A DNA stretch of 64,000 bases from an uncultured Candidatus Saccharibacteria bacterium (GCA_964372755.1 CAYJQX010000002.1:10287-74286); one strand, 5' to 3'. Counted from the first letter of the stretch, positions 7,517 through 56,193 are shown. A program made the numbers and translations. The notes: generated by a model from the sequence alone, not told the origin.

Positions 7517-7641
7517 ATTTGTCGGGTACCGACCGCTTGCCAAGTTGTGGGACGGAGAAAGCAGACGATCAGGCTTTAATCTAAATGAAAAGCTTGATTA
7601 ACTTTTCCCGCCACAGGTTTGCGTGGTACCCGACAAATAGC
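7517..7641. repeat. 125-bp element closed by a perfect 14-bp inverted repeat (ATTTGTCGGGTACC / GGTACCCGACAAAT) with internal helices. It is either a MITE-like repeat or a small structured RNA.
   Basis: Read directly. Outer 14-bp stem, inner GTGG..CGG/CCG..CCAC helix, apical ATCAGGC/GCTTGAT helix. It sits upstream of the SPFH gene. Confidence 0.3.
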
Positions 7642-7726
7642 TAATAAAATTATTTTAAAGACTTAATCCACTCTAAATCTTTGATTGATTTTGGTATTTC
7701 ACCTTTCTTTAAAGCGAATTTGTAGA

Positions 7727-7847
7727 AAAGGTGTCAGGAACCTTTTTTGGGACTTTCTCGTTTTTTGGTTAAAAATTCTTTTTACTTTTTCCATAAATAC
7801 TGTACTGATATATATTTACTTTAAAAAATGGTTCCTGATACCTTTAA
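7727..7847. mobile_element. MITE-like element copy A (~120 bp) with TIRs AAAGGTGTCAGGAACC / GGTTCCTGA(T/C)ACCTTT
   Basis: Near-identical full copy at 17105-17224. Solo TIR-like ends at 23218-23234 and 25572-25597. No coding capacity. Confidence 0.55.
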
Positions 7848-7891
7848 CTTCTGACACCTTTAATCCTTTAATCTTGATTTGGAACATAAAA

Positions 7892-8293
7892 TTATTTTAA
7901 AGACTTTATCCAGTCTAAATCTTTGATAGATTTTGGTATTTCACCTTTCTTTTTGGCAAATTTTCTTTTTAATTTATTAAACAGGCTTTTATGCTCTTTA
8001 TATTTTTTGTTATCTTTCTTGTCATAGGTATTACTTTTAATGACCCCTGGGGTACAATAATATCCTGGATAATTTATCCAGAGAACTGAGGCAGTAGAGC
8101 TGTAAGTCAATCCGAAATTGGTTTCAAATAGTTCTTTTATAAATGGAAATCTTATATACATATTGGTTCCTTTTATTACAAACTTACCATTAAGATTTGA
8201 TGAATCAAATTCTGTTTCATAACCCAACTGTTGAATATAATCAATAATATCCTTAGCTGAATATTGTTCGAAATTGTAACTAAATGTTCTCAT
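7892..8293 (-). CDS. Hypothetical protein (133 aa). Its 3' end is duplicated upstream of the MITE.
   Basis: ORF only. The last 65 bp of the gene (7888-7952) are repeated at 7646-7710. Confidence 0.35.
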   Translation of the reverse strand: MRTFSYNFEQYSAKDIIDYIQQLGYETEFDSSNLNGKFVIKGTNMYIRFPFIKELFETNFGLTYSSTASVLWINYPGYYCTPGVIKSNTYDKKDNKKYKEHKSLFNKLKRKFAKKKGEIPKSIKDLDWIKSLK

Positions 8294-8321
8294 AAATATA
8301 AATTATTCGATTATTTGTTAG

Positions 8322-9053
8322 GATAATGGGGTCAGTCACCATTTATCTTCTGGGTCTCCCCACTCTACGTAAAGACTGCTCTAGTTTAAATTTTTTCACT
8401 ATATTATTGCGCCACTCATCTACCCCAAAAGGAATATTTTTAATAATCGACCCTCTTATTATATCAATCTCCTCATCTTTTTGTGATTCGTTAAGGTAAT
8501 GTAAATAATCCGAGGGTTCATCAATAGGCCAAGAACTTAAAATTTTCTTTTGACTTGTGTTACCAAAAATCCTTCTCCACGCACTAGACCATTTCCATTT
8601 TTGCGCCTCATCTACTAATTTGGCTCGCTCTGGATTTCTTTCTACATATCTTACGAGAGAAAGAAAATAAAAATCTGCCTGACAAATAAATGATTTATAT
8701 CTTCCTTGATATAAATGGCCATGACCAATAGTTCCCTTTTTTGTGTGCCAGCGTCTGGTATGAGTATTGGTCAGCCAACTCATGAACAAAGATAAATCCT
8801 TGTCATTCCTAGGATACAAAATTAAATGCCAGTGATTAGGCATAATGCAGTATGCAAGAAGTCGCATATCAAATTTTTTAACAGCCTCTTCTAAAATAGT
8901 TTCAAAGTCTTTGTAATCTTGATCATCATAAAAAATCTTCAAGCGATCATTTGCTCTGTTGATAACGTGATAGATTTCATCACCAACATTTATTCTTTGC
9001 ACTCTCGACATATTTTTATTATATCCTAATCAATGGTGGCTGACCCCATTATC
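8322..9053. mobile_element. RAYT/IS200-like unit: transposase gene bracketed by inverted 21-bp repeats GATAATGGGGTCAG(T/C)CACCAT
   Basis: Read directly from both flanks. There are no DDE-type long TIRs, consistent with HuH-family hairpin ends. Confidence 0.5.
8343..9011 (-). CDS. IS200/IS605-family (Y1, HuH) tyrosine transposase, RAYT-like
   Basis: HuH motif MPNHWHLIL and a catalytic-Tyr region YQGRYKSFICQADFYFLSLVRYVERNP. Flanked by 21-bp inverted repeats (8322-8342 and 9033-9053, 20/21 match). Confidence 0.6.
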   Translation of the reverse strand: MSRVQRINVGDEIYHVINRANDRLKIFYDDQDYKDFETILEEAVKKFDMRLLAYCIMPNHWHLILYPRNDKDLSLFMSWLTNTHTRRWHTKKGTIGHGHLYQGRYKSFICQADFYFLSLVRYVERNPERAKLVDEAQKWKWSSAWRRIFGNTSQKKILSSWPIDEPSDYLHYLNESQKDEEIDIIRGSIIKNIPFGVDEWRNNIVKKFKLEQSLRRVGRPRR

Positions 9054-9102
9054 ATTATTCATCAAATACTTTTTTTATAAAGTCTCGACCTCCAATTTCT
9101 AT

Positions 9103-10155
9103 CTATATCAATATCACTGGCTCGCACAGAACATCAACCGGAGCAATGCTTTCCTTCTCAAAAAAATCATAAGCTTTTCTGGAAATAATAAGGTGGTTGT
9201 TGTCAGTTCTGAAAAAATCCAATCCTTCGGGAATATTTTTCTTTATTAGGTAAAGCTGGGAAGTAAGTAAGGGAAATTCTTTCCCAGTGATAGGACATTT
9301 CCTGTCTTTAGTTGTGTAAACACTTGCCTTCCTTAAGGAAAATCTGCCTTTTATCTCTTCTACACCCTTGATTTGCTCTACATCAATGGCCATCCATTTT
9401 GTTAGGTTTTGATCTGTTGGGGGTGTGAATTCACCTATCAAACGTGCGTCTCTTTCTGTATCGCCATGTTTCCTGTTCAAATTGTATAAACTTGACAACA
9501 GTCTTTCTCTTTTTCCTTGTTCCGCCTCATCTTTCGTCAAATAGAACATCGGATGATGTTCATCCAGTTCACAAACTAATTCTTTAGCAATATTTAATAA
9601 GTCTTCTCTTTTTCCTCTGTTGTAATATGAGTATAAATTGTTATCGGAAGAATAAATTCGGATAAACTCCAAACCTGGCAATCCACTATTCATGATTACT
9701 GAAGCTACTGAATGATGTGCATATAAAATACCGTCTAAGTCAAAACCTAATAGCATAAGAATTTTACCGGATTTTTTTCCTACATTAATTTGTGAATTGG
9801 GATCTGTTGTAAAATAAGACGAACAGGCTTCTTTTAAGTCACAGGGATTAAAAATCGCAGTACTATGCAAATATAATATGTAATAAGGGCTATTTTTTAA
9901 ATGAGGATTTCTGTATTCCTTAAATCTATAGTCCAACTGGGAATGATAAAATAATTTATATTGTAAATTATTGTAAGTGTTCTTTTTCTCATCTAAAAAC
10001 CCAATCATTTTAAAAAGTTTGTCAAAAGTGCTCTTTATAAATGAATAATTATAATCTGGTTCACGGGAGAGCAAAGCAGGATTAAACTGCATTAAATCAT
10101 TTAAAATTTTTGACCTGTCAGAGCCGTAAACACCGATATTGATTACATTAAGCAT
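9103..10155 (-). CDS. Hypothetical protein (350 aa) immediately downstream of the nuclease-tipped giant protein. It is a candidate immunity or partner protein.
   Basis: Position only (33-bp gap, same strand). No recognisable motif. Confidence 0.35.
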   Translation of the reverse strand: MLNVINIGVYGSDRSKILNDLMQFNPALLSREPDYNYSFIKSTFDKLFKMIGFLDEKKNTYNNLQYKLFYHSQLDYRFKEYRNPHLKNSPYYILYLHSTAIFNPCDLKEACSSYFTTDPNSQINVGKKSGKILMLLGFDLDGILYAHHSVASVIMNSGLPGLEFIRIYSSDNNLYSYYNRGKREDLLNIAKELVCELDEHHPMFYLTKDEAEQGKRERLLSSLYNLNRKHGDTERDARLIGEFTPPTDQNLTKWMAIDVEQIKGVEEIKGRFSLRKASVYTTKDRKCPITGKEFPLLTSQLYLIKKNIPEGLDFFRTDNNHLIISRKAYDFFEKESIAPVDVLCEPVILI

Positions 10156-10187
10156 ATTTTATTTACTGTTTATTTCCAATACTAAAC

Positions 10188-13100
10188 TCAATTACATGGG
10201 ACAAAATTAGCAAAACCAAATCTTGCCTTGATTGGTCCATCCACTGCATGCGCCCATTGGTGTGCGCCACACGGCAAGGGTAAAATGTTGTCCAGCTCTT
10301 TTTCGAATTCAGGCGCCTTTGATCTAGGTATTAAATGGTGTAAATGCATAGTATCGCCCGTACCTTGAAATTTGGGCGTAACGCCACTCAAATCCATTTT
10401 TAATATATCAGCATCACTAAATAATTCTCTTATTCTCGAATATCCAGCCGCCTTTTTCCAATAATCAGTTCTTAGGCTGTCAAAGTTGTTAAATTGCTTG
10501 CCTTCTCTACTGAATTCTTTAATTATCCATTGGTGCATGTCTTCAATTATTTCAAATTCCGGCTTGGTTAACTGGCCGCCCTTTACAAAATCATTTGAGA
10601 GAGCTATCCGACTAAACCCAAGCTTGGTGGCTGCCGCTTTAATAATGTTTTCTGGTCTAGAAAGCACAAAATTAATATCATCCTGGTTATGGTAAGGTTT
10701 TTGGACTGATTCGTAAAAATCTATTCGATTTTTAGGATTTGATATTATAGATCCTTTAACTCTTTTCCATAACGTGTCTCTGTCTAGATTTTTCTCAATC
10801 TCCTTAATCAACTTATTTTTCCCCAATTTAGAGGCTTGGGAAGAAGCGCCAAGACTATTCAATGCTTTAGTTCCGGCTAAGTTAATAACTATTCCGGAAG
10901 TTTCTAAAGCCAAGTTAGCCCCCAATTTCCCGCAGTAATAAGCCGGCGGTTTATTGTCTAGAAGTGTTTCGTCATCTGAAGCGCAGGCTTGGTAAACTGG
11001 CGCGTTGTTATAAGCGGCTAGGGATATTGTGCCGGCTGCAAATACCCAGCCCACAAAAGGGAAAAATTTAACTGATGTTTTTATGGCAATGGATTTACTT
11101 TTTTTTACTGCTACAAATTCCATTGCCTTTTTTATAACTTCGCCAATGGCTATACCAGACGCGAAGTCAACACCCATGCCAATGTAATCGCGTTCGCGAA
11201 AAACATCTAATACTCCCTCCACCACCTCATCGTGATTTTTTCCTTCAAATGCTTTCAATACAGCGAGAGTTTGGGAAATGTCATCTATTTGAACCACGTC
11301 ACTTCCGAGCGTATTTCGTAATTTTTTTCCGTTTTCAAAATTTTGGAAAACAGCCCCAGAAACAGTTCCCGAAATTTGTGGGTCATCATCGGGAAAGCCC
11401 ATGCCACTTGTCCCACCCAATTCATTGTGTTTTTCGTAAATTTTCCCGAACACAACATAGGCGTCGTCAGGCCACAAAAATCTGTCTATCTTGTATATTG
11501 CGCCGTTTGTAAAACGTTGAGAATCACCATCCGTGCCGGTCAGAGTGTATGTCGCTGTCGGGACCATACTACTAGTTGGGTATCCTAAAAGCGCAGGTGT
11601 ATATTGGTTGGTTATTTTGTCGCTACTGACGTATTTGTCATAAATTTTACCCTCAATAACTTGCGCCACTGTTTGTTGTGGATTATAAACAACTAATTTC
11701 TTCTCTCTGCTATTTTCATAAACATAAGTCCCCCAATACGGAAATATTTTCCGTATTGTTACATTGGTGCCGGATACTTTGCTGGCTATTTGAGCGCTAA
11801 TAAAGTTGTCTCTTTGCCAATAATTGTAATTATCGCTACTACTCTTAAAATAAGCACCGTTGGTGGCAACAATAAAAGAATGGTCGTGTGAGCCAAATTG
11901 ATATGGCCCGCTTTCGTTGTCGTTCATGCATGGCTTGCCGTGTTGAGCTAGATTCCATCCTGGCGCGATATTACCACCAACGATCTGATTGTAAGTGGTA
12001 ATTTTAATACTACAGAGGATATTTTTATCCGAATTATCCTTGTAAATAAATTTACTTGGCCCGTTGTTAAATTCGTAAGCCAATTGCGGTTTACTTACGC
12101 TATTGTTCCATGTGGACAACGTATATTGATTAGTCGTCCACCCGCCATTTTGCTGGGTCTGCTCCCCGATGGCGTAGGTGCCCGTCCACACAGGGTCCAA
12201 AGAGACGTAGAAGATGCCTGTCCAGCTTCCGTTTGTTACAAATTTGTTGGGAGTAACAACGGTGTTGCCAGCTTCCACGTCTGCGCGCATATTTTGTTTG
12301 GTGTTTTCGGAGAGCGCCAAAGTATCAATCAAGCCCGCATTGGCTGAAGTGATTTTGTGGACAGTGTAGTCCTCTGGGTGAGCGTAAGCGTATTGCAGGC
12401 CACGAACGGTGGAAATACCATCCAGCCCGGCAATATCCGTAAATATTTGAGCTTCTTGGTATGAGGCATTTAGGGCGAAAAGCAAGCGATAATCTTTTCG
12501 GTGATCTTTGTAATTACCACGATTGGAATAATCGTTTATCAAAGTCGCGGCGTCTAGGCTCAAACCCTTGAAATCAAATGTGGTGGGCACGCCACCAATA
12601 CTATTTAAAATGCGATTTTGCGTTACCACGGCGCGGGAAAAACTGTTGATCACTTTATGATCTAACGATTTTTCCAGCAAAGAGCCGGAGGTTTCGATAT
12701 TAGTTAAATAAGTTCGCGCCAAACCAACATTTCCCTTGAGCAGTATTTTGGAAGGAGTGTCAGATTGCGTATCAGGTATCGTTTTACCCAAAGAAACAAT
12801 AATGCCCTCGTCGTTGCCGGCAATGGAAAATTTTTCACTAATATATTTTTGCACTTCGCCTTGCTTTAAGGTAAACCGCAAGATCAGGTCTTTACCGACA
12901 GATAAAGGCGAACTTTCCGCCAAAACAGAATTGTCGGCTTCTAAAACCGCCTTGATATCAACCAATGTCGCGGGCGTGTAAGCCAGTCCGCCGAATGATT
13001 CAATAGTAGCTTTGTCGGTATCGCTCGCGCCGACATAAAAAAGGTTTATGTCCTTGTTGTTAATTTCGTTGCTCCAAAGAGCGCGCTGTAAAACAGGCGT

Positions 13101-14804: not shown

Positions 14805-14933
14805 AAAATAGCCTTGTCTGACTTTGCGCCCATCCTAGCATCAGGGAAAAACTTGTCAATAAGATGATACGGGAAGCTATTACATGATTATTGTGTGGTG
14901 ACACTATCCCGGCCTCTAGCTCTGCGACTGTTT

Positions 14934-15194
14934 TTATTTTTTATAAACATCGTGATCTCCTACTGCCAAAAGAACAACGGTTTGCTTTGAGAGATAGTTA
15001 AAAACTATGCGTGTTTTGTAATTTACAGAGAAACTATATCTACCTTTTAATCTGCCTTTAAGTTTGTGGACTTTGAGTAATTTGTGATTTTTAACTTCTT
15101 TAAATAAACCAATTTTCTCAATAACCTCATCTTGCAAATCTTTTCCCAAAACATTAAGTTGTCTAATAAAACTGGGCTTATACGTAACGTCCAT
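14934..15194 (-). CDS. RelE/ParE-family type II toxin
   Basis: 86 aa. ...LKGRLKGRYSFSVNYKTRIVF...VLLAVGDHDVY is the RelE/ParE signature. Paired with the upstream RHH gene. Confidence 0.7.
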   Translation of the reverse strand: MDVTYKPSFIRQLNVLGKDLQDEVIEKIGLFKEVKNHKLLKVHKLKGRLKGRYSFSVNYKTRIVFNYLSKQTVVLLAVGDHDVYKK

Positions 15195-15205
15195 AGTAGA
15201 AAAAA

Positions 15206-15409
15206 CTAGAATTTCTTCATTAGTTTTTTTAGATCTCCGCGAATATTTGGCTCTTGCTCCGCTTTTATCACTGCCATAACAGCTTCTTCTTCAGCCAGCA
15301 TTTTTAGGGCATGACGAACCACCTGGGCCTTGTTGGAACCATTTTTTTTGGCAAGTCTTTCTACTAATTCTACCAAATCAGAGGTAAGCGGAACAGATAA
15401 TGTGGTCAT
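15206..15409 (-). CDS. Ribbon-helix-helix (CopG/ParD-like) antitoxin
   Basis: 67 aa, with an N-terminal RHH-like segment. 11-bp gap to the RelE-like gene. Confidence 0.65.
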   Translation of the reverse strand: MTTLSVPLTSDLVELVERLAKKNGSNKAQVVRHALKMLAEEEAVMAVIKAEQEPNIRGDLKKLMKKF

Positions 15410-15863
15410 ATGGTAAAATCATATTACATTATCATATAAAAAGTCAAGGCGGACATATTATACAATATCCTTTGTAGCTTTCATGTTTGCTAATACTAGC
15501 ATTTTACAAAAAGAGAAGCAACTGCAATACTTTTGCTTCAATTTAATTTTGATTTGCTTCTTTCTTCCCTAATTCCCCTATTGGTAGCTCTATAAAGGAA
15601 GCACTTTCTTCGTAGAACTGCCCACAGGACAAACGACTCAAAAAACCCTTGTCAAAGAAAAAAAGGCTTGAAAAACTAGAACCATTGTCCTCAAGACAGA
15701 ATTGTGGTTAAATAGTAGCCGGAGAAAGAAACCACTGTGGTTTCTTTTGATCCAATGGCTCTTTAGCAAAACGAAAAGGAAGCGCTAAGCTATGGCAAGA
15801 TCGCCAGAAGAAATCAAGCCACGCCAGTAACGACAAGGCACAAACAGAAAAGGAGAGAAACTC

Positions 15864-16186
15864 ATGAAAATTAAATTGGCAATCGTTGGCGTTGGAAATT
15901 GTGCCAGCTCGTTCATCCAAGGCCTCGAATACTACAAGCACGTTGACGAAACGTGGCCATCTGTATCGGGACGGGACTCATGCACAACAACTTCGGCGGA
16001 TACATCATTCGTGATATCGGCGTGGTTGCCGCCTTTGACGTGAATGGCAACAAAATCGGCAAAGATGTATCCGAAGCGATCTGGACACTGCCGACCAACT
16101 CGCGTAAGTCCGCCGACGTTCTTCACAAGGACGTTGCGGTAAGCGCGGGGTTCCTCGGTGACGGCATCGCTCCGCACATGCGGTGA
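15864..16186 (+). pseudogene. myo-inositol-1-phosphate synthase fragment, frameshifted near codon 30 and truncated at ~107 codons
   Basis: Frame 1 gives MKIKLAIVGVGNCASSFIQGLEYYKHVDET (canonical MIPS N-terminus). The protein continues in another frame as GLMHNNFGGYIIRDIGVVAAFDVNGNKIGKDVSEAIW.... There is an AGGAG Shine-Dalgarno 8 nt upstream. The region is GC-rich relative to the flanks. Confidence 0.6.
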
Positions 16187-16335
16187 ACCTTTTCCTCTCG
16201 CTCCTCCCATCCACTCGCGACACGCGGTCCGTACGAAACTGGCATTCTCTCCGTTAGCCATTTGGCAATCGTTGTTTTACCGGCGTAGCTTACGCCTTCA
16301 AGACAAATCAAAGTATTCACGGCTCACCTCCACTT

Positions 16336-17007
16336 TTAAAGCTTGGTCGAGCAATTGGGGCCCACCGTGTCCGCCTTACCGTCTCGAATGATTACCACCG
16401 GCTCCGTACCGTATTTTGTGAACGTTCCGTCGGTAACATAACCGCCAGCTTTCTCTGGGATAGCTATAACGCGCTTCCGTAGATCGTCGGAGAGTTTCAT
16501 TACGGATTCAAGATCTTCTGCTCTGTAATGACAAAAGATTGAGTAACCATTAATGATTCTCAAACCTACGGCTTCCGTCTCGCCAAGTTGATTTGCCTCC
16601 GGTGCCGTACGAATATCCTCGCCGAGAATGATCGCTCCGGCGCTTCCTCCGTAGAGCGGAATGCCTTTCAGCGCCATCTCACGGAGATAGCCATCAAACC
16701 CGGCCGTGCGTATTTCCCGAAACAGTTTTACCATATCGCCGCCGCCGATATAGACCCCTGCGATCTCGTCAGTCGAACGACGAGGACGCAAGTCGTCCCA
16801 CATTTCAATGGCGACGACGCCAAGCGGCTCCATGACCGAGCGAAACCACTCCAGGCATGCATGGTACGGCTTTGAACGCATGGCGTTCGGGATGTAGACG
16901 AGCGGTTTTGCAAGATCGAGCAGTCTGACAAACTGCTCGTCGAGCGGTCTTGACTCTTCTGCGTTCCCGCCGCCTGCGAGAAAGATGTGGTTGGTTGCTG
17001 TGTTCAT
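16336..17007 (-). CDS. Peptidase S51 family (dipeptidase E/cyanophycinase-like) protein
   Basis: IFLAGGG...VYIGGGDMVKLF...LYGGSAGAIILG motifs. About 50% GC, versus ~36% for the surrounding genome. Confidence 0.5.
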   Translation of the reverse strand: MNTATNHIFLAGGGNAEESRPLDEQFVRLLDLAKPLVYIPNAMRSKPYHACLEWFRSVMEPLGVVAIEMWDDLRPRRSTDEIAGVYIGGGDMVKLFREIRTAGFDGYLREMALKGIPLYGGSAGAIILGEDIRTAPEANQLGETEAVGLRIINGYSIFCHYRAEDLESVMKLSDDLRKRVIAIPEKAGGYVTDGTFTKYGTEPVVIIRDGKADTVGPNCSTKL

Positions 17008-17104
17008 GGGTTTCTTCTTTTGATGTCCCAGAGCCGCATGATGGGGATAGTTCGTTTCCTAACTACTCCGCGCAGGAACTCTTCGTGCAGAAAAGGTGTG
17101 CAGA

Positions 17105-17224
17105 AAAGGTGTCAGGAACCTTTTTTTGGGCTTTCTCGTTTTTTGATTAAAAATTCTTTTTGCTTTTTCCATAAATACTGTACTGATATATATTTACTTA
17201 AAAAATGGTTCCTGACACCTTTAA
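17105..17224. mobile_element. MITE-like element copy B
   Basis: Near-identical to 7727-7847. Its right TIR supplies the stop codon of the CYTH-like ORF. Confidence 0.55.
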
Positions 17225-17526
17225 TTCTCAATAGCATCTAAAAGAGATATTGTTTTATCAAAATCCTCAACTTCAAAGCAAATTTCCTTCTGCCTGTCTA
17301 TACCGTCTTGATCCCAGTCTACCACTTTCAAACTCAGCGTGATTTTATCGCCTTCATTGCGCACTCTAAGGCGTCCTCCTTTTATTTCATGTCCGCCGGG
17401 CAAATTCAAAACAACGCGTTTTTGTAAAAAAGAGGGGCGCAGAAGGACGGCGCCTTTTTCTTTTAACTTGGCGCGTAGTCTGTCTTTGTTTATGTTCAGA
17501 TACTTTGCTTCAAATTCGGTGGGCAT
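17221..17526 (-). CDS. CYTH-like (class IV adenylate cyclase/triphosphatase) domain protein, apparently truncated by the MITE insertion
   Basis: N-terminal EFEAKY motif typical of CYTH. Only 101 aa. The ORF terminates inside the MITE TIR. Confidence 0.4.
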   Translation of the reverse strand: MPTEFEAKYLNINKDRLRAKLKEKGAVLLRPSFLQKRVVLNLPGGHEIKGGRLRVRNEGDKITLSLKVVDWDQDGIDRQKEICFEVEDFDKTISLLDAIEN

Positions 17527-17535
17527 AATAATTTT

Positions 17536-17766
17536 CTAAATCAAGGAAATAAAATCTTCAGGCGCAATATTAATTTCTCGCAAAATCTGGCGAAGCAGAC
17601 CACGTCCAATATCTTCACTTGCATGACTGGGTACCAAGGTTGTACGTCCGTCTTTATGACGAAAGAATATATGAGAGCCTTTTTGTCTTACTTCCACAAA
17701 ACCCAAAAGAGATAAGGCTTTTATAACTTGCCTTGATTTTAACATAGGTAATTTATTGGGAGACAT
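17536..17766 (-). CDS. hicA: HicA-family mRNA interferase toxin
   Basis: LKSRQVIKALSLLGFVEVRQKGSHIFFRHKDGRTTLVPSH is the HicA signature. Confidence 0.75.
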   Translation of the reverse strand: MSPNKLPMLKSRQVIKALSLLGFVEVRQKGSHIFFRHKDGRTTLVPSHASEDIGRGLLRQILREINIAPEDFISLI

Positions 17767-17767
17767 T

Positions 17768-18013
17768 TTACACAGTCATTACCTCCAAACCAACAAAAGA
17801 TGGGTTGTAGGCAAAACTTTTTATTCTTGCTTGATATTTTTTATCAATTAAAGCCACCTCCAGACAAAGACGAATGGCATCTTTAGTTTTTTCAGCCAAC
17901 CCTTGCATAGTTTTAGCTTGGGTGTGACAACCTGGCAAAGCAGGCACGGAAGCAACAAAAAAACCATCCTCGTCCCGTTCTATTATTACTTTGAATTCTT
18001 TTTTAGCTTTCAT
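17768..18013 (-). CDS. hicB: HicB-family antitoxin
   Basis: IERDEDGFFVASVPALPGCHTQAKT is typical HicB (UPF0150). 1-bp gap to hicA. Confidence 0.7.
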   Translation of the reverse strand: MKAKKEFKVIIERDEDGFFVASVPALPGCHTQAKTMQGLAEKTKDAIRLCLEVALIDKKYQARIKSFAYNPSFVGLEVMTV

Positions 18014-18168
18014 ATATATGTTGAAATTATTTTTTTTTCCGGCATTTTTTTTATAAGCTGTACTAAGTCAGAGATGTGCGGGAGAGATAACGCGACTTTA
18101 TAATATCACAATAGTATCGTAATATATATTCATACAAAAAGCTAATTATGAAAAAAGACAGATTAGAT

Positions 18169-19836
18169 TTAACTCACCTCTTTACCTCCTAACTCCCCCA
18201 CCGGAAGTTCTATGAAGAAAGTGCTTCCTTTGCCAACTCCCTCGGATTCTACCCAAACATTGCCTTTGTGTTCTTTGACGATTTCTTTGGCTACATAGAG
18301 GCCCAAACCAGAGCCGGAAGAATGGACGCTGGAGAGGCCATTGGCGCGGGTGAATTTTTGGAAAAGAGTGGGAATAACTTTCTTCGGGATGCCAATGCCG
18401 GTATCTTTTATTTTGATCAAAAAAGTTTTTTTGACGTTGTCTCTGGAGAGAAAAACTTCTATTTTCCCTTCTTTGGTGTATTTCATGGCGTTATCTATAA
18501 GATTGGAAAAGACCTGCTGGATTTTGTTTGGATCGCCATGGATTTTATAATCCTTGCCCGGCTCCGGCTCAAAAGATATTTCCATAACTTTGGCTCGTGT
18601 CGGTGATTTTTTTATGATTACGGCTGTTTCTTCAGTGACTGTTTTGACCATCTCCGCCAAATCAAAATCGCCGAATTCATACTGCATTTTTCCAAGTTCT
18701 ATGCGAGAAACATCTAAAAAGTTTCCGATGATAAGAACCAGTTTTTGGCTGGAATCAAAAATTTTCTGCACCACATCCTGCACTTTCTTGGTTGTCCCCC
18801 CAAAAGAACCTTCTATGATCATAGACGAATAGCCTTTGATAGCCGTAAGCGGAGTGCGAAGCTGATGAGACGCGATGGAAATAAACTCCGTTTTAGCCTG
18901 ATCCACCAGCTTGAGTTTCTCATTGGCGGCGGCTAATTGCTCCGAAATGACTTCCAATTCCTCTCGCGTCCGAACTTCTTTCCAGACACTGCGGATCAGG
19001 AGGAGACTAAATATAAAAATAGCTATAAACATTCCTATGTTTAATAACATTTCTTCTGCGGATACAGAAAGAAAAATTCTTATAAGAAGAAGAATATTAA
19101 CAAGAAAAGCAAATAGTTCTGTGGTTATTACTCTTATATCCAAAAGATTATGTTTAAGAATCGCATAAGTAGTAAAAGTCACCATTATCACGGTAAAAAT
19201 TTGCCCTATCCAGTTGAATGAAAAATAGTTTAATGTAGGCAATACTAGATTAGAAAACATGGCCAAATTAGCGGCCACAAAATAACCAATGAAGACATAT
19301 CTAATTTGAATTTTCTCAATGTCTTGTGAAGTGCGGTAGTTTTTAAAAAGATTATAAAAACCAAGAGAAAAAATAACAACGGTGTAAAGAAAGTAGATAT
19401 AATATAAATCACCGAAAATTATTAATTTCTCGGCCCCTTCCTTCGAAAATATTACTTGTTTTATTATCTTGTTTTCGTAAAGAGATATTATTATTAAGAA
19501 CAAATTGAAAACAAGCAGGGCAACTTTTTTCCAGGTTTGAAAAGAGAGTTTGTTGTTTGGGAAAACAAAAGAAAAATATAAAAAACCAGCAGCAGTTAAG
19601 GTGGCCGAGGCGTAGAGTATTTTTGCCCAAATTATACTTAGGTCGATAGATGAACTAGACCTGTATCCAATCATTGTTATACACCACAAAAGGATAGAAA
19701 AAATAACAAAAAGATAAGCTTTACTACCTTTAGTATGTCCACCTTTGAGGTAGATAAAAACAGCAAGAATAGCATTTATAAATATTGTTATTGAAATAAG
19801 AATATTTATAAGATCAAAAGTGAAAGGTAAAATCAT
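18169..19836 (-). CDS. Sensor histidine kinase (multi-TM sensor, HisKA, HATPase_c)
   Basis: H-box ISIASHQLRTPLTAIKGY. N and G boxes NLIDNAMKYT...DTGIGIP...GSGLGLYVAKEIV. No response-regulator gene adjacent. Confidence 0.8.
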   Translation of the reverse strand: MILPFTFDLINILISITIFINAILAVFIYLKGGHTKGSKAYLFVIFSILLWCITMIGYRSSSSIDLSIIWAKILYASATLTAAGFLYFSFVFPNNKLSFQTWKKVALLVFNLFLIIISLYENKIIKQVIFSKEGAEKLIIFGDLYYIYFLYTVVIFSLGFYNLFKNYRTSQDIEKIQIRYVFIGYFVAANLAMFSNLVLPTLNYFSFNWIGQIFTVIMVTFTTYAILKHNLLDIRVITTELFAFLVNILLLIRIFLSVSAEEMLLNIGMFIAIFIFSLLLIRSVWKEVRTREELEVISEQLAAANEKLKLVDQAKTEFISIASHQLRTPLTAIKGYSSMIIEGSFGGTTKKVQDVVQKIFDSSQKLVLIIGNFLDVSRIELGKMQYEFGDFDLAEMVKTVTEETAVIIKKSPTRAKVMEISFEPEPGKDYKIHGDPNKIQQVFSNLIDNAMKYTKEGKIEVFLSRDNVKKTFLIKIKDTGIGIPKKVIPTLFQKFTRANGLSSVHSSGSGLGLYVAKEIVKEHKGNVWVESEGVGKGSTFFIELPVGELGGKEVS

Positions 19837-19837
19837 T

Positions 19838-20971
19838 TCAAGTATTTTTTTCTAAAACACGTTTTATATCTTCTATAATATAAGTTTTATGGAAATTTTG
19901 GTATTCCGCTATGCGTATATCTAATTTTTGAGCCAAAGACCATATTTCTTCTACTTTTTGAGCTTCAAGCCAACCCAAACTAAAACTTTCTATTTTATCA
20001 AAAGCTGATAGGGTAATTATCTCTCCTAAACATGAAAAAACATCTTCTTTGTGTTTTAAACCAAAATCAAATTTATACTTGATATTTGGCACATGTAAAG
20101 TTCCTGCTTCTATGACTACGATATCTTCTCTTTCTTTAATTATTTCCGTAGATATGTCTGAGGGTTGAGCGTCATCTATTATAATACTTCCTGAAGAAAG
20201 GTGTATGGATTTTATAACTGCATCTGGAGCATTAGTAGCCGTTATTATAAAACGCGCCCCTTTTATTTTATCGGTATTGTTTGATATATCAATATTTATA
20301 TCTCGGAATTTATTTCTTGCTTCTGTCGCTATTTTTTCCAATCTTTCGTTTTTATGTTTTAAATCTATCAAAACAAAAAAACGCGCTCCTTTTTCGGCTA
20401 ATCTTTTGAAACTGGTGGAGCCCACTGATCCAGCGGCGCCAACGATCGCTATCTTTTCTTTTGATATATCAAGATTTAATTTGGAAACGATAGAGAATAT
20501 GTTTTCAGTAACTGTTGCTACCGTTAGGGCGTGGCCCGTTGTGACTATAACTTCTGTTTTCCCAACTAAATCCAGCCCACCTCTTGTTAGAGAGGAAGTA
20601 AGTGCACCAAGACCTGCTATTTTTACTCCTAATTTTTCCGCGTATTTTAAACAATCTACTATTTTTTTTTGAGCCAATTCTCTATCATTCATCATTTGTT
20701 TCGCTGTCATAGCAAAACCAATCACTACTCCTTCTATTTCTTCACCATTGATTTTTTTTACACCGTTGATTTTTGTGACGACTACTGGAGGAAATTTTTT
20801 GATTATAAAATGATTGAACCACTCAGGGAAATATTTCATTAGGGGAAATTTCCTATAAACATCTTTGAGATATCTAGCATGTACCAAAAAAGCAAATTCC
20901 GGCTTTTTTTTAAAGATAGTTTTTTTATTTCTACTGGCTCCTGAAATATAAGAAAGGAAAAAATCTAACAT
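19838..20971 (-). CDS. NAD(P)-binding Rossmann-fold dehydrogenase-like protein (shikimate/amino-acid dehydrogenase-like)
   Basis: GxGxxG segment IAIVGAAGSVGSTSF. No firm family assignment. Confidence 0.3.
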   Translation of the reverse strand: MLDFFLSYISGASRNKKTIFKKKPEFAFLVHARYLKDVYRKFPLMKYFPEWFNHFIIKKFPPVVVTKINGVKKINGEEIEGVVIGFAMTAKQMMNDRELAQKKIVDCLKYAEKLGVKIAGLGALTSSLTRGGLDLVGKTEVIVTTGHALTVATVTENIFSIVSKLNLDISKEKIAIVGAAGSVGSTSFKRLAEKGARFFVLIDLKHKNERLEKIATEARNKFRDINIDISNNTDKIKGARFIITATNAPDAVIKSIHLSSGSIIIDDAQPSDISTEIIKEREDIVVIEAGTLHVPNIKYKFDFGLKHKEDVFSCLGEIITLSAFDKIESFSLGWLEAQKVEEIWSLAQKLDIRIAEYQNFHKTYIIEDIKRVLEKNT

Positions 20972-21061
20972 TGACTTATTATATCATAAGTGATATAATA
21001 TAGCAAGGTTTTATTGTTCATTTACTCATTTCTATTCTCATCTCAAAAAAGGAGAATTTAG

Positions 21062-21784
21062 GTGCAGAACCAGAATGTTCCTATTCTTGTGATATTAGGA
21101 ATGTGGGAAGATGTTTCTGTTTTCCACCAATGGGAAGATCTTTTAAGAAAGGACACTGGTAGAGATATTTTATACTGGTCATATAGAGAAGGTTTTTCGT
21201 CTATTTCAGAAAGAGATTTTGGCAAGTTATCTCTTCTTGAAATAGAGAAAAAGCTCATGGGAGCGATCAAAAAAATTGGCCCGGTTATTCTGTTGGGTCA
21301 TTCAACTGGTGGATTACTGTCTCAACTCGTTAGTGCTAAAACAGAGTTAGTCAAAGCTTCTGTTTTAGTAGCCAGCGCTCCTCCAAAAGGAATAAGCGCT
21401 TTGGATTGGCCCACTATTTCTCGCATGTGGCGATATCAATTAGCCATGTGGAAGAATCAAAGAGTGTGGGTGAGGAGGGAAGACCTTCTAGCAACTCAAT
21501 ATTACTGTTGTCCAGAAATGTGCCCAGCTAAAATTCTTCCGGAATCCGGGAGGATGATTCAAGAAGTTGCATGGTCAAAGATTTCTACCAGTTTCATCTC
21601 TTCTCCCGTCTTGGTTATCGCTGGCGAAAAAGATAGAATCGTTTCTTTTTCTTCCCAAAATAAGATTGCAAAGAAATATGGAGCCAAGATCATATCCTTT
21701 CCAGAAATGGGTCATATGCTTATGATTGAAAAAGATAGCATATTAGTTGCAAGAACCATTTCCGATTGGATAAATAGCCTCTAA
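21062..21784 (+). CDS. Alpha/beta-hydrolase fold protein
   Basis: Nucleophile elbow VILLGHSTGG. GTG start as given by the ORF track. Confidence 0.55.
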   Translation: MQNQNVPILVILGMWEDVSVFHQWEDLLRKDTGRDILYWSYREGFSSISERDFGKLSLLEIEKKLMGAIKKIGPVILLGHSTGGLLSQLVSAKTELVKASVLVASAPPKGISALDWPTISRMWRYQLAMWKNQRVWVRREDLLATQYYCCPEMCPAKILPESGRMIQEVAWSKISTSFISSPVLVIAGEKDRIVSFSSQNKIAKKYGAKIISFPEMGHMLMIEKDSILVARTISDWINSL

Positions 21785-21820
21785 CCCGACTGCAAATTAA
21801 CGCAGTCGGGTTTTTCTTTT
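21785..21820 (+). terminator. Rho-independent terminator
   Basis: CCCGACTGC-aaattaa-GCAGTCGGG followed by TTTTTCTTTT. Confidence 0.6.
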
Positions 21821-22460
21821 AGTTATTTAAAAACGATAAATCAGCTTTTTTCCGAGGATTATAAGTTTTAACATATTTGCCATACGCAACTTTAAAATAT
21901 CGCATCCAGTTGTTCGGATGATCATCCGAAAGATAATTCTTACCGAATTTTTTCTTTTCTCTGGTTATGCGTCTTTTGTCTGCTTTTATAAAGTCGGTAT
22001 CAAGATAAATGTTTTTGTGGATATATTTCGTAATGGTATGTTCTGGATGCAAAAGAAATATACCCTCTATTACCAAGACTTTTTTGGAGAGGTCAAATAC
22101 TTGCTTGGGACCAAATTTATTTTTATCATAGTCATAGGTTTTGAGCTTAATTGATTTTCTCCCATTTAAAAATGCTTTAATAAGTCGTTCTAGATCATCA
22201 TAACGATACCAGTGATACTCAAATACTCTTGATTTGTCTTTTGCTTTTTCTATCATTTCTTTACGTACTTTCCAATGATTGATGAAATCGTCGAGATGCA
22301 CGGATAACACATCTTTGTTGTGTTTCGCAATGAAGTTGACAACCGTGCTTTTGCCTGAGCCTGCGTAGCCATCAACAGCTATAATTAACTTGGCATGGTC
22401 TTTCTTCCATACCTTAATTTCTTGGCATATTTTTTTGGCGATACGTTCTGATTTGATCAT
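21819..22460 (-). CDS. P-loop kinase, uridine kinase/PRK-family-like
   Basis: Walker A IAVDGYAGSGKSTV. Confidence 0.45.
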   Translation of the reverse strand: MIKSERIAKKICQEIKVWKKDHAKLIIAVDGYAGSGKSTVVNFIAKHNKDVLSVHLDDFINHWKVRKEMIEKAKDKSRVFEYHWYRYDDLERLIKAFLNGRKSIKLKTYDYDKNKFGPKQVFDLSKKVLVIEGIFLLHPEHTITKYIHKNIYLDTDFIKADKRRITREKKKFGKNYLSDDHPNNWMRYFKVAYGKYVKTYNPRKKADLSFLNN

Positions 22461-22523
22461 GGTTAAAAAAGAACCCGGAATCGGTTTAGACGTGGAAAAT
22501 TATAATTGTTTTTTATGAATGTC

Positions 22524-23228
22524 CTACTCCCTCCCCATAAAATATTTTTTAAAAATTCTTTCGTTATTTTTTATTTGAAGAGCTAAAGGTTCAAGACCCA
22601 TTATTTTTCTTCGTTTTTCCACTCCCATAATATTTTTTATGGGTATTGGCTTAGTCACACACTTACCGCTTACTATCTTTGTCTCTACGACAGTGCCGTA
22701 GACTTGTTTCTTTTTTTCCGAAACCAAGATTTTATCCGTGAGGTAGGCGATGTTTTTCTTGTCTATATTATTTATATTCCTTTTCATTTCTGCCAAACAT
22801 TTTTTCGCGAAAACTAAGTCCCCAGTATGCTGGATTATTACCCATGCATTATAGGAAGCCATTTTTCCTACTTTGGAAATCGTTGGCCAACCAATTTCCT
22901 TGACGATAGTTTTTAATTTCCGCGTGGACTCCTTGTCAATTTTGCGTAGTTTTTTTAAGGACACATTTTTATTTTTCCTCGCTAACTGGTCCTTTTTGTA
23001 TAGATTATTTATTTTTTTAGAAATTTGTGTGCTTATCATATTTTTTGTTTTTTTATTTAAAAATACTAGAGTTACTTTCGTAACCCCAGTGTAGCATTTT
23101 ATAACAATTTTGATTATTAAACCCGCAAGAGATCTGCCATTGTTCTTGCGAGAGGTTATTCCGTATTCTTCTCGACAAAAACCCATGAACCCGTGGGGTT
23201 TATCTCGAGAAAGAAAAGTTCCTGACAC
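22524..23228 (-). CDS. Hypothetical protein. The N-terminal extension is probably spurious and overlaps a solo MITE TIR.
   Basis: ORF only. The likely start is at an internal Met. Confidence 0.25.
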   Translation of the reverse strand: MSGTFLSRDKPHGFMGFCREEYGITSRKNNGRSLAGLIIKIVIKCYTGVTKVTLVFLNKKTKNMISTQISKKINNLYKKDQLARKNKNVSLKKLRKIDKESTRKLKTIVKEIGWPTISKVGKMASYNAWVIIQHTGDLVFAKKCLAEMKRNINNIDKKNIAYLTDKILVSEKKKQVYGTVVETKIVSGKCVTKPIPIKNIMGVEKRRKIMGLEPLALQIKNNERIFKKYFMGRE

Positions 23229-23293
23229 CTTTAATTCACTTTTCCCTTAGAAACTTACTTGCTTCTATTAATCTTGTGCCTTAAAGTTTAGAA

Positions 23294-23875
23294 ATGGCAT
23301 CAAGTTTTTTGTTTTTAATTATTTTTTTTATCTTTATTGTTAACATAACGCTGTTTTTTTTAGTACTTATTTTTTTTCTGTCATTTCTTATTTCTGCAAC
23401 GTTTGGCGCACCCTATGTCTCAATTCCCAGAAAATCTATAATGAAAATACTATCGTTTGGCAATCTTTCCTCCAATGACATTTTTTATGATCTTGGTTGT
23501 GGAGACGGTCGCGTTTTGATGTCTGGTTTATCTAATTTTAACGTATTAAAAGGCGTGGGTTATGAAATATCACCGTGGCCATATTTAAAAACCCTGTTTT
23601 TAATAAAACTTAATCGAATAAAAAAAATTGAATTATTCAGAAAAAACTGCTTAAAAGCAAACATAAATCAAGCGACATTTATTTATTTTTATCTATTACC
23701 TAAATTGACTGACAGTTTAGCCGACAAAATAGCCAGAGAGGGAAAACCAAAAACAAAAATATTATGTGTTGCATTTCCAATAAATACAGATAGGTATGTT
23801 GAATTTCAGCTTTTAAAATCAACCAAAATTGATAACTTGATGGTGTACTTGTATGAATTAAAAATCCCTGCGTGA
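23294..23875 (+). CDS. Small membrane-anchored class I SAM-dependent methyltransferase
   Basis: N-terminal TM, then motif I DLGCGDGRVLMS. Confidence 0.5.
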   Translation: MASSFLFLIIFFIFIVNITLFFLVLIFFLSFLISATFGAPYVSIPRKSIMKILSFGNLSSNDIFYDLGCGDGRVLMSGLSNFNVLKGVGYEISPWPYLKTLFLIKLNRIKKIELFRKNCLKANINQATFIYFYLLPKLTDSLADKIAREGKPKTKILCVAFPINTDRYVEFQLLKSTKIDNLMVYLYELKIPA

Positions 23876-23910
23876 TTATTATCACGCAGGGATTTTATTC
23901 TATATCACTC
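23873..23910. terminator. Bidirectional intrinsic terminator
   Basis: CCCTGCGTGAT-tat-TATCACGCAGGG, flanked by A-tract and T-tract, between convergent genes. Confidence 0.55.
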
Positions 23911-24109
23911 AATCCTCCCATTGACCTTGAGCGATTGCTTCACCAATAGACTGGCCAGGCTTTACGCGAACCTGGCGTTCTTCATCCGTCTCGGTGTTTC
24001 TAACCTTATAAATGTGGGTTTGCCAGCTCAATGGCAGAATCCAATTTAGAGATTCATTCTCTAAACCCTCCCATGTGGCCAGTCCCTCATTTTCCCATTT
24101 GTCGCTCAT
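23909..24109 (-). CDS. Small hypothetical protein (66 aa)
   Basis: ORF only. Confidence 0.25.
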   Translation of the reverse strand: MSDKWENEGLATWEGLENESLNWILPLSWQTHIYKVRNTETDEERQVRVKPGQSIGEAIAQGQWED

Positions 24110-24281
24110 GGATACTCCCTTTCTTGGTTTATAGGGTTTGTTTTGATTTACCTTGCTACGGTAATTTCAAAAGAAGAAGGTAAATCCCATCTCGCTGTCT
24201 GTTGCAGAGCCTATCACCACTACCTCCCCCGTTGTCAATATGTATGGCTAAATTGTTATAAATATGTTATAATTTTAATGT

Positions 24282-24803
24282 ATGGATGCTTACCTAAGAA
24301 ACATTATGCTTATCGGAGGAATAAATTCTGTCCTGGATTTAGGTGCAGGCAAAGGATTTAACAGTCTTTATTGCGCTAGTTTTGGGGCAAGCATCATTGC
24401 TGTTGATAAAAAAGAATTTCCTGAATATCTAAAAAATCACCCGAAAATAAAACTTGTTAATAAGCAAATAGAGAACTTCGCTTGGCCTGAAATAAAATAC
24501 GATCTTATAATTTTAAATAACGTTTTACCGTTTTTGACGAAAGAATTCTTGAAAGAAAAACTTGTGCCTAAAATTATAGAAAACCTAAATAGTAAGGGCG
24601 TAATTTATTTATCCACTTTTTCGCTAAACGACCCCGTGTTTTCAAAAGATTCGAAAAAAAGCCTGTATACATTAAATGAACTTCTTGGTATTTTCTCTTT
24701 ACTCTCTGTAATGATAAAGGTAGAGGAAACGGTAAAAGATAATCATGAGCCTCTTGGCTCACATGAACACAGTATGATAAAAATTGTTTTAAGAAAAAAA
24801 TAG
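24282..24803 (+). CDS. Class I SAM-dependent methyltransferase (TehB-like)
   Basis: Motif I VLDLGAGKGFNSLYCA. Post-I acidic residue IIAVD. Confidence 0.55.
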   Translation: MDAYLRNIMLIGGINSVLDLGAGKGFNSLYCASFGASIIAVDKKEFPEYLKNHPKIKLVNKQIENFAWPEIKYDLIILNNVLPFLTKEFLKEKLVPKIIENLNSKGVIYLSTFSLNDPVFSKDSKKSLYTLNELLGIFSLLSVMIKVEETVKDNHEPLGSHEHSMIKIVLRKK

Positions 24804-24830
24804 CGGTGGAGATTTAGTTTCTCCACCGCT
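24791..24830 (-). terminator. Intrinsic terminator (U-tract on the minus strand)
   Basis: AGCGGTGGAG-atttagttt-CTCCACCGCT, preceded on the plus strand by an A-tract. Confidence 0.5.
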
Positions 24831-24857
24831 GGGTGTATATGATCTGAGTGATTTAAT

Positions 24858-25475
24858 TTACTCATCACCTGCACATGAACTATTGCAATTTCCTTGGCCA
24901 CAGTCACCACCTGGACCAGAATCGCAACTCCCACAGCTTCCGCCTTCGCACTTTTCTGCAACGATACCTGGCTTATTTTTTCGGGGCCAGTTTGCCTCAT
25001 GGTAGGGGAAGCCAATGGTGTCCATGAATTTCACAGTATCCAGAGCAGTCTTTTCGAGAGATTCTCCTTCTTTGTCGTTCGGTTCATGGTGAACAAAACA
25101 ACCGAAAGATTTCCTGCAGAAATTCTGGTAATCTCTGGTATACATAAGAAATACATGCCAGCCCAAGTCAACATTTTCCGATGGGACCATCCCAATTTCC
25201 GCGTATTCGCCACAGAGTTTCAGGAAGCCAATCGTGTCGTCGAGAATCATCTGAATTTCTTGCTCTGACAATTCAGAATTCTCTTTTGCCAACCTGCCGA
25301 AAAGTCTTTTCCAGAGAACATCAGAAATCATGTCCTTGTGGAAAAGAATCTCAATTCCTTCAGTCACAGTGAAGTCCATGACTGATTTTTCTGCAGTAAC
25401 CATTGAATCCTCCAATAAGAAATTAAACGTGGAAACGAAATGAGAAAGAAAGTAATAGCTGAGCGAAACCTTCAC
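24858..25475 (-). CDS. Hypothetical protein with a Cys/Gly-rich C-terminal tail (CEGGSCGSCDSGPGGDCGQGNCNSSCAGDE). GC-richer than its surroundings.
   Basis: ORF and composition only. The true start is possibly an internal Met (MVTAEKS...). Confidence 0.3.
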   Translation of the reverse strand: MKVSLSYYFLSHFVSTFNFLLEDSMVTAEKSVMDFTVTEGIEILFHKDMISDVLWKRLFGRLAKENSELSEQEIQMILDDTIGFLKLCGEYAEIGMVPSENVDLGWHVFLMYTRDYQNFCRKSFGCFVHHEPNDKEGESLEKTALDTVKFMDTIGFPYHEANWPRKNKPGIVAEKCEGGSCGSCDSGPGGDCGQGNCNSSCAGDE

Positions 25476-25645
25476 GCACCAATTTTTTAATGTTCTAATT
25501 TAGCTAGGAGTTTATCACCACTACCCCCCCCTCTGTCAATGTAGACAAAGTTTGTAAATCGTGTTTTATTGTTTCAGGGGAGAAAGTGTCAGGAACCTTT
25601 TTTGGGTCATTTTTACAAACTTTGTTTTCTTACTATCGTAATTTT

Positions 25646-34597: not shown

Positions 34598-34655
34598 TAA
34601 TTTGAGCTGTTTTCCATTCTAGCAGAAATTAGCTATTTTAGTCAAGAGGCTTGGG

Positions 34656-43870: not shown

Positions 43871-43966
43871 TTTCTCACCCCCTGTTTTCTTTTTTTTAAA
43901 CTTTTTTTGTGTGCGAAACTGTTGGATAAGCTAGCACGAAGAACTATATTTGTCAATGTTTTTTGG

Positions 43967-44960: not shown

Positions 44961-45076
44961 TTTTGTATAGGGTGATTAGACTTTCCACCCAAAAACAATG
45001 GACGTCGTCAGAAACACTGAACGTCGAAACAATGAACGACGTCTGGCGTCGTTCATTGTTCATTGTTTTTTCAATC

Positions 45077-52201: not shown

Positions 52202-52278
52202 TCTGTATTTATCCCCTCTCCAATGATAGACGTCCGACGTCTATCATTGGATTTATTTGAAAATTTTTTAATTTAATC

Positions 52279-56157: not shown

Positions 56158-56193
56158 GGTCTCTATGAGAGACGTCCGACGTCTCTCATACGT

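Follow-up and report, generated by a model that had tools for sequence, protein, structure and literature searches.

Short inverted-repeat elements in a Patescibacteria genome fragment as probable internally deleted TIRtrons

What kind of element left a set of short, dispersed, non-coding repeats in the genome of an uncultured bacterium, and which enzyme copied them? We address this question for a 64,000-nt stretch of DNA from an uncultured Candidatus Saccharibacteria bacterium (CAYJQX010000002.1:10287-74286; hereafter the window, with positions counted from its first letter), whose DnaK protein is closest to those of Paceibacterota (Patescibacteria), at 77-80% identity. A first-pass annotation had described here a family resembling miniature inverted-repeat transposable elements (MITEs), with two full copies bounded by terminal inverted repeats (TIRs) of 16 bp and two solo ends, and the sequences are present as it located them. 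Our reading is that these repeats of about 125 bp are very probably internally deleted, non-autonomous copies of a TIRtron, an element whose transposase is of the TIRYT type and resembles subclass 2.1 of the TnpA-Y1 tyrosine transposases, and that the solo ends are broken remnants of further copies. The TIR is identical to that of complete elements in other genomes, the miniatures retain coding remnants, the two full copies share one deletion junction, and no target-site duplication was found.

The repeat family in the window is real and non-random. The 16-mer AAAGGTGTCAGGAACC occurs, with at most three mismatches, at 6 sites in the 64 kb against an expectation of 0.53, and none of 100 shuffled sequences reached 6. 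An nhmmer profile built from the two full copies yields four loci only over the same 64 kb, namely copy A (7722..7852, minus strand; full copy 7727-7847; E = 4e-42), copy B (17098..17229, minus strand; full copy 17105-17224; E = 6e-42), a solo right end and a solo left end. In copy A the TIRs lie at 7727-7742 (plus strand) and 7830-7845 (minus strand, one mismatch), the sense of the deleted transposase gene being the minus strand; in copy B they form a perfect inverted repeat (17105-17120, plus strand, and 17207-17222, minus strand). The solo right end, a 5' TIR in gene sense (23209..23237, minus strand; blastn 20/20, nhmmer E = 0.009; 16-mer site 23217-23232, minus strand, one mismatch), lies between the divergent open reading frames (ORFs) 22524-23228 and 23294-23875, and the solo left end is a 3' TIR with the remnant CCC AAA AAA GGT TCC TGA (25580..25611, plus strand; nhmmer E = 1e-4; 16-mer site 25582-25597, plus strand, two mismatches). 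Over 124 nt copy A matches copy B at 95% identity; the likeness ceases at the element boundaries, beyond which the flanks are unrelated. The earlier description holds in so far as the elements are short, do not code, are bounded by TIRs, belong to one dispersed family and include solo ends. All five elements in the window are co-oriented (5/5), the gene sense being the G-rich strand, which for so small a number is merely suggestive of a strand bias. Target-site duplications, for which the first-pass annotation had proposed to look, were not found: both copies were inspected and no direct duplication is visible at the element ends, the flanks reading ...TTTGTAG and CTTCTGA... at copy A and ...GTGCAG and TTCTCAA... 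at copy B, without a direct repeat. This agrees with the behaviour of HUH/Y1 elements and speaks against a MITE of the DDE type.

The inner structure of the miniatures points in the same direction. Read on the minus strand, copies A and B consist of a 5' TIR, a 35-nt leader, ATGG as what is left of the gene start, a short stretch without an intact frame, the remnant of a gene end and a 3' TIR. The gene-end remnant, CC(N) AAA AAA GGT TCC TGA (P-K-K-G-S-stop), is kept in A, in B and in the solo left end, and in the miniatures its TGA stop lies inside the 3' TIR; compared by eye with the true gene end in L057 and the TIR-adjacent sequence of L025 (L numbers denote loci and contigs outside the window), 22 of the 26 nt beyond the TIR are alike. 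The internal deletion junction is identical in A and B, and a common junction between unrelated flanks indicates a single deletion event, after which the miniature was copied to a new site. Such same-junction miniatures at unrelated sites constitute direct sequence evidence of a TIRYT element mobilised in trans, in this case in a bacterium of the candidate phyla radiation with a small genome.

An autonomous partner with matching TIRs, another item that the first-pass annotation had put forward for a search, exists as complete elements in other genomes, and its enzyme is a Y1/HUH tyrosine transposase. An exact scan for the 16-mer over one genome per species (596 Gb), for which our own arithmetic predicts a few hundred chance matches, gave at least 120 loci, mostly in metagenome-assembled genomes (MAGs) of Planctomycetota; further listed matches are in Nitrospirota, NC10, NPL-UPA2, Vicinamibacteria, Proteobacteria, Bacteroidota and two Patescibacteria. 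Among the matches listed, TTT or GTT stands directly after the 16-mer in 124 of 170 occurrences, and 33 convergent pairs are present, 25 of them spanning 41-140 bp and 6 spanning 721-886 bp. The pairs of about 750 bp contain one gene for a Y1/HUH transposase of 222-232 aa, and the exact 16-mer brackets Y1 genes in Planctomycetota, Nitrospirota, NC10, NPL-UPA2 and Vicinamibacteria MAGs (complete elements bounded by it: L057, L079, L082, L089 and L102). Chance matches in viral contigs, taken as a contrast set, are without all these features; the listed matches are not due to chance. Between the 5' TIR of a complete element and the start of its gene there are 23-45 nt, and the start often comes right behind TTGAC; the gene ends in ...GRPKK..KGS* with its TGA stop within the 3' TIR GGTTCCTGACACC. 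TIRtrons in general have TIRs of 16-19 bp with the core GG(T/G)GTCAG..ACC. A Y1 protein encoded in the window itself (8343-9011) can be aligned from end to end (43-52% identity) with the genes between such pairs in L057, L079, L082, L089, L096 (two genes, arranged as tandem copies), L102 and L104. TIRYT-type tyrosine transposases are common, with 2807 homologues at E <= 1e-10.

Other arrangements of the same end were seen along the way. A doublet of 65-69 bp, AAAGGTGTCAGGAACC-TTTTGTGCGAAGCACCCGCAGGGCCGTTCCGGCAAAA-GGTTCCTGACACCTTT, with a near-constant spacer, recurs in several Planctomycetota MAGs (L052, L075, L081, L099, L117 and L026) and appears, from its sequence, to be a separate, widely shared miniature family. 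AT-rich miniatures that keep an ...EKGS* remnant are found in a GC-rich Kiloniellales MAG (GC 0.64-0.67; L007 1406-1500 and L014 1269), consistent with recent horizontal arrival. One transposase (P0029; in L157, L158 and L159) has three upstream flanks that diverge exactly at the 5' TIR and a downstream flank that is common for at least 70 nt, a pattern that could be due to one-ended movement or to recombination at the TIR.

The Y1 gene of the window belongs to a complete element of its own, on the minus strand at 8322..9053, about 500 bp from copy A. It encodes 222 aa (8343-9011; Pfam Y1_Tnp, 5e-19) and is enclosed by the inverted TIR AATGGGGTCAG(T/C)CACCATT at 8325-8343 and 9032-9050 (2 sites, with 0.02 expected), which is of the clade-specific type ATAATGGGGTCAGCCACCATT. 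The relatives of this protein (62-77% identity; Patescibacteria and Omnitrophota) all have the resident TIR type, usually with the TGA inside it, and the proteins of AAAGGTGTCAGGAACC-type elements form a separate set, 46-77% identical to one another and 43-53% identical to the Patescibacteria set. Because the TIR type is clade-specific, the miniatures are not cognate with the Y1 gene 500 bp away, and their mobiliser may be encoded outside the window, may have been lost, or may be the resident enzyme acting across TIR types. The resident protein contains the motifs NHWH, YVERNP and WKWSS; its best NCBIfam match is the REP-associated tyrosine transposase (RAYT) model REP_Tyr_transpos, where REP stands for repetitive extragenic palindrome, at 63.3 bits (cutoff 80), and it scores 20.4 bits (cutoff 55) with the IS200 model NF033573. 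The GRPKK tail gives a weak AT-hook signal (E = 0.51; Pfam, four family members scanned), and a search of the PDB by sequence gave no match at E <= 0.01. Virus-borne spread was considered for the family and rejected: L145 alone, among 15 viral contigs in which the 16-mer occurs, is a true element, and none of the 5 viral contigs with the resident TIR type is one.

Elements of this kind have been described before. Di Nocera et al. (2013, PMC3733652) found long inverted repeats, in many cases with a shared GGGGWSAS, on either side of RAYT-like genes, and introduced the names TIRYT for such a gene and TIRtron for the element; they also describe TIR repeat families that are moderately abundant and occur in singles, dimers and clusters. 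Quentin et al. (2018, PMC6006769) identify most TIRYTs with subclass 2.1 of TnpA-Y1, the counterpart of RAYT Group 1 in Bertels et al. (2017, PMC5581495). For subclass 2.1 Quentin et al. give a median of 238 aa, the HUH motif NHVH or NH[YF]H, the motif Y[IV]ELNP or Y[IV]HLNP (Y...NP throughout class 2), an SS motif in the tail and a C-terminal extension resembling a helix-turn-helix (Bac_DnaA_C, HTH_23, HTH_28), and they state that ISfinder curators do not count TIRYT-type transposases as insertion sequences (PMC6006769). The likeness of the resident element is close, with a RAYT-like Y1 gene of about 220-240 aa between tightly adjoining inverted repeats that are not GTAG REPs, and with a TIR that holds GGGGTCAG, an exact fit to the published GGGGWSAS; the TIR of the miniatures, with GGTGTCAG, is one base off that consensus. 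NHWH, YVERNP, WKWSS and the length of 222 aa likewise resemble, by eye, the entries for subclass 2.1 in Table 1 of PMC6006769. The window TIRs, too, are arranged as two dimers and two singles, and elsewhere dimers (the 25 of 41-140 bp among the matches listed) and tandem arrays (L005, L029, L106) match the published arrangements. On account of the motifs and of GGGGTCAG in the resident TIR, we class the resident element among the TIRtrons and take the repeats to be a miniature family derived from TIRtrons. Some features differ: the window miniatures retain coding remnants, and the 16-mer is identical across phyla and accompanied by tandem partial copies of the TIR, none of which the accessible text of the papers on this class mentions. 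The host here is a Patescibacteria MAG, and the helix-turn-helix-like C-terminal domain of subclass 2.1 went undetected by Pfam in four members of the present family. A search with 13-mers, on both strands, turned up no mention of them in the papers covered. The kind of element itself is on record, as TIRtrons and as TIR repeat families (PMC3733652). What we describe is a known but little-studied kind of element, here in a Patescibacteria genome.

HUH/Y1 enzymes such as those of IS608 and TnpA-REP cut and rejoin single-stranded DNA at structure-defined sites, with no duplication of the target and with strand bias. By analogy, we propose that a TIRYT able to recognise its TIR type, and either encoded elsewhere in the genome or since lost, would have copied the miniature in trans and as a whole. 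Such an enzyme would recognise paired or sequence-specific TIRs and move whatever stands between them, cutting and rejoining single strands as HUH/Y1 enzymes typically do, while the two TIRs pair as a stem; the resident TIRYT (8343-9011), of a sister clade, may or may not cross-mobilise the miniatures. As single-stranded DNA the whole miniature folds into a stem of paired TIRs, with z = -4.4 and -6.6 for the two copies (copy B, -6.6). The hairpin of a single TIR is weak (-4.5 kcal/mol, z = -1.9), and recognition through a small hairpin within one TIR, in the manner of REP or IS608, was rejected in favour of TIR-TIR pairing because of this weak fold and its unconserved outer pairs. A leftover promoter in the miniature that might drive the downstream Band_7 and Peptidase_S51 genes was also considered and dropped: nothing was found on the right strand and none of the candidates rose above shuffled sequence.

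A further feature of the family is a kind of stutter, in which a tandem copy of a few flank bases and of the outer half of the TIR often stands just outside the TIR. Among the matches listed, a perfect tandem duplication of this sort is present at 23 of 174 TIRs, and in 26 of 167 cases the 40 nt adjoining the TIR on its outer side contain AAGGTG, whereas the reverse complement is there in 0 of 167. In the window, a partial extra outer TIR, CTGACACCTTTAAT (7851..7864, plus strand), stands just beyond the right end of copy A and is 14/14 identical to the end of copy B, and a tandem duplicate of flank plus outer TIR, GTGCAGAAAAGGT (17085..17097, plus strand; period 13, run 15), stands beside the left end of copy B, where it forms the junction with foreign DNA (...CTTCGTG / CAGAAAAGGT). 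Elements of the Patescibacteria type likewise carry partial TIR copies. One may speculate that cleavage within the TIR, or else slippage at the stem, has left these copies as a scar. The stutter also has a longer-period version, with the 16-mer and its flank repeated directly in tandem every 48-70 nt (L005 3774-3887, L029 5527-5590 and L106 1009-1094).

How do other explanations fare against these data? With their size, their TIRs, their non-coding body, their origin by internal deletion and their insertion in or near genes, the repeats have much in common with classical bacterial MITEs (Nezha, RUP, Correia/NEMIS), and an insertion sequence of DDE type that had been shortened by deletion, moved by cut-and-paste and duplicated its target site would fit the look of an AT-rich, non-coding element of about 125 bp with 16-bp TIRs in a window that holds two copies of a DDE insertion sequence (rve-domain ORFs 34698-35645 and 44009-44956). 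Neither dependence on a DDE transposase nor target-site duplication applies here, however: both copies are without a direct duplication, the rve element lacks this TIR (the six window sites all lie elsewhere), the exact TIR brackets Y1 genes in many genomes and the partners found code for Y1_Tnp proteins, and the body of the miniature bears remnants of a Y1 gene. We thus regard a classical MITE as extremely unlikely; of the MITE-like description, the miniature and non-autonomous character stands, and a classical element of DDE type is not what we find, the partner being Y1/HUH. Nor does it seem that the fold of the whole element as a long stem betrays a structured RNA or a transcription signal (terminator, attenuator or small RNA) instead of mobile DNA, a reading to which we give next to no credence. 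That stem is merely the TIR pair, an E-value scan of 7600-9200 against Rfam gave no family (best E = 2.5, a plant microRNA model), promoter- and terminator-like sites are no commoner than in shuffled sequence, and the coding remnants together with the Y1 association account for the sequence. A more serious objection is that the repeats might be inert relics, produced either by decay of full elements in place or by segmental duplication, with nothing of 125 bp ever having been mobile. There are, after all, four loci only, within 18 kb, in a window without a cognate transposase, and around them lie broken genes (the orphan 3' end of one gene, part of a histidine-kinase gene, the truncated CYTH gene) and foreign DNA. 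Yet copies A and B are 95% identical, have the junction in common and cease to be alike exactly at their boundaries; the common junction argues against independent decay, and the unrelated flanks argue against segmental duplication, which would have brought flanking DNA along. On balance we consider inert relics very unlikely.

Somewhat less remote, though still improbable, is a strict REP or REPIN system, in which a domesticated RAYT, present in single copy and inherited vertically, would spread and maintain hairpin repeats in the service of the host and not as a selfish element. The family shares its transposase superfamily with REPIN/RAYT (Bertels & Rainey 2011, PMC3116915) and with the TnpA-REP of E. 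coli and its REPs and bacterial interspersed mosaic elements (PMC3333891). The best NCBIfam match is a RAYT; the gene lies between inverted repeats, in a REPtron-like layout, and is flanked by a repeat presumed to be spread by it; inverted doublets form a hairpin, target-site duplication is absent, and the 41-77-bp TIR doublets of other genomes resemble REPINs. That match, at 63 bits, stays under the cutoff of 80, however, and the family has neither a GTAG-tagged palindrome nor a single repeat that makes a stable hairpin. The conserved GT[AG]G foot that characterises REPs is missing, with GTAG beside copy A only, GCAG at copy B and GGAG at the solo left end. In addition, the 87-nt spacer of the window doublet stems from the gene's own ends, and the miniatures contain pieces of the transposase gene, which implies that the window copies derive from the element itself. 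Multicopy genes and spread across phyla, moreover, point away from single-copy vertical inheritance, and the family looks like an insertion sequence (a tandem pair in L096, one protein with three upstream flanks, the same 16-mer across phyla). A comparison with IS200/IS605 elements is also instructive. These have differing subterminal hairpin ends without TIRs, and their TnpA has about 150 aa and a Y...Q motif. With IS200/IS605 and their miniatures, the palindrome-associated transposable elements, the present family shares the small size (about 700 bp) of a Y1/HUH element, deletion derivatives that are not autonomous, the absence of target-site duplication and a strand-biased orientation. It differs in its true TIRs, its 222-aa protein and its Y...NP motif, and with a score far under the cutoff of the IS200 model it is not IS200.

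Several points weigh against our interpretation of the repeats as deleted TIRtrons. The window contains no TIRYT gene with the matching TIR type, its sole such gene carrying the other, clade-specific TIR. A 20-mer from the element body gave two unrelated chance matches in the metagenome collection, and neither a parent nor a further copy; comparison with a related contig, L133 (DnaK 89% identical), yielded no empty site, since L133 stops about 100 nt before the solo left end. The outer pairs of the single-TIR hairpin are not conserved across loci, no helix-turn-helix match was obtained in the C-terminal part of four family members (Pfam, E up to 10), and we know of no TIRYT that has been experimentally shown to transpose.

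The 16-mer end is identical across several phyla, and its transposases have diverged to 46-77% identity. We would only tentatively go further and suggest that TIRYT elements could be a currently active, horizontally spreading and unrecognised family of insertion sequences, that the partial TIR copies could be scars of cleavage in the TIR near GTCAG, and that the elements could mark or create junctions at which foreign DNA is captured; this extended picture is doubtful. If it were true, copy B, which is fused to a decaying island from a GC-richer donor in a reduced Patescibacteria genome, could be such a junction. The end shared across phyla, the stop codon within the TIR, the AT-hook-like GRPKK tail and the tandem partial TIR copies might serve as leads for biochemical work. 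For annotation, the lesson is that the repeats account for the truncation of the CYTH gene and mark where an acquired island ends.

The CYTH gene is a CyaB-like ORF of 101 aa on the minus strand (17221..17526), which covers positions 5-96 of a 174-position profile (TIGR00318, E = 0.0015, a weak match). The suggestion that copy B supplies its stop is borne out: the TAA at 17221-17223 lies inside the element end, and the ORF represents the first half of the profile only. The abutting GC-rich foreign island, also proposed earlier, is likewise confirmed, with GC 0.46-0.585 over 15800-17000 against 0.395 for the window, and with 88-91% identity to the JGI metagenome contig L162. The island ends at copy B (15676..17087) and holds a Peptidase_S51 gene (16336-17007, minus strand) and a fragment of an inositol-1-phosphate synthase gene. 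L162 (2345-5188; GC 0.507) codes for an archaeal-type S-adenosylmethionine (SAM) synthetase, Peptidase_S51, thymidylate kinase and inositol-1-phosphate synthase, and matches the island in three collinear blocks with two internal deletions; relative to L162 the island has lost the thymidylate kinase gene and has a shortened inositol-1-phosphate synthase gene, and the match stops three bases into the duplicated unit beside copy B. The island thus appears to be a decaying foreign fragment, and a chimeric assembly would be an unlikely origin because of the two internal deletions and the identity of only 88-91% to the closest relative.

Copy A has its own neighbouring fragment, an orphan duplicate (7644..7721, minus strand, by translation) of the last 23 codons and the stop of ORF 7892-8293 (KFALKKGEIPKSIKDLEWIKSLK*), so that 7644-7721 and 7886-7963 form a 78-nt direct repeat, 91% identical, that brackets copy A. 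With the duplicated gene end at copy A and CYTH at copy B, both full copies adjoin gene fragments. The segment between the two solo ends had been taken for the GC-richer interior of a decayed composite element with two SAM methyltransferases and a Cys-rich ORF. The segment does contain two ORFs that resemble methyltransferases and a further one whose tail is Cys-rich, but its GC of 0.365 is below the window mean of 0.395, the solo ends point apart and nothing marks the interior as a unit. We therefore rejected a composite transposon, on the orientation of the ends and on GC.

The island is enclosed, together with copy B, the truncated CYTH gene and HicAB, by a 29-nt inverted repeat (15594-15622 / 18203-18231, 93% complementary), an arrangement suggestive of an inversion or a duplication. 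The repeat's right arm is the C-terminal coding end of a histidine-kinase gene (18169-19836; KGSTFFIELP), and the left arm is an orphan inverted copy of it (KGSTFFVELP). Among the rearranged segments are toxin-antitoxin pairs of the HigB-like/ribbon-helix-helix and HicA/HicB kinds (14934-15409 and 17536-18013), and the stretch from 7.6 to 18.2 kb looks like a junkyard of mobile and defence-type genes.

The remainder of the window holds other repeats and one structured RNA. A second repeat family consists of the intergenic palindromes ATGAnnGACGTCnGACGTCnnTCAT at 45038-45050, 52229-52241, 54079-54091 and 56171-56183 (4 copies, 0.03 expected), which resemble the CGTC-tagged palindromic repeats of PMC3733652. 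The two copies of the DDE insertion sequence encode an identical 315-aa ORF and share a repeat (34633-34932 / 43944-44243), and the copy at 34.7 kb is missing from the syntenic position in the related contig L133. A gathering-score scan of the window against Rfam returned one family, the LOOT RNA (RF03000) at 63595-63713, with 82.6 bits against a gathering score of 46.4, which lies just downstream of an OLD-family AAA/TOPRIM ORF (61597-63537).

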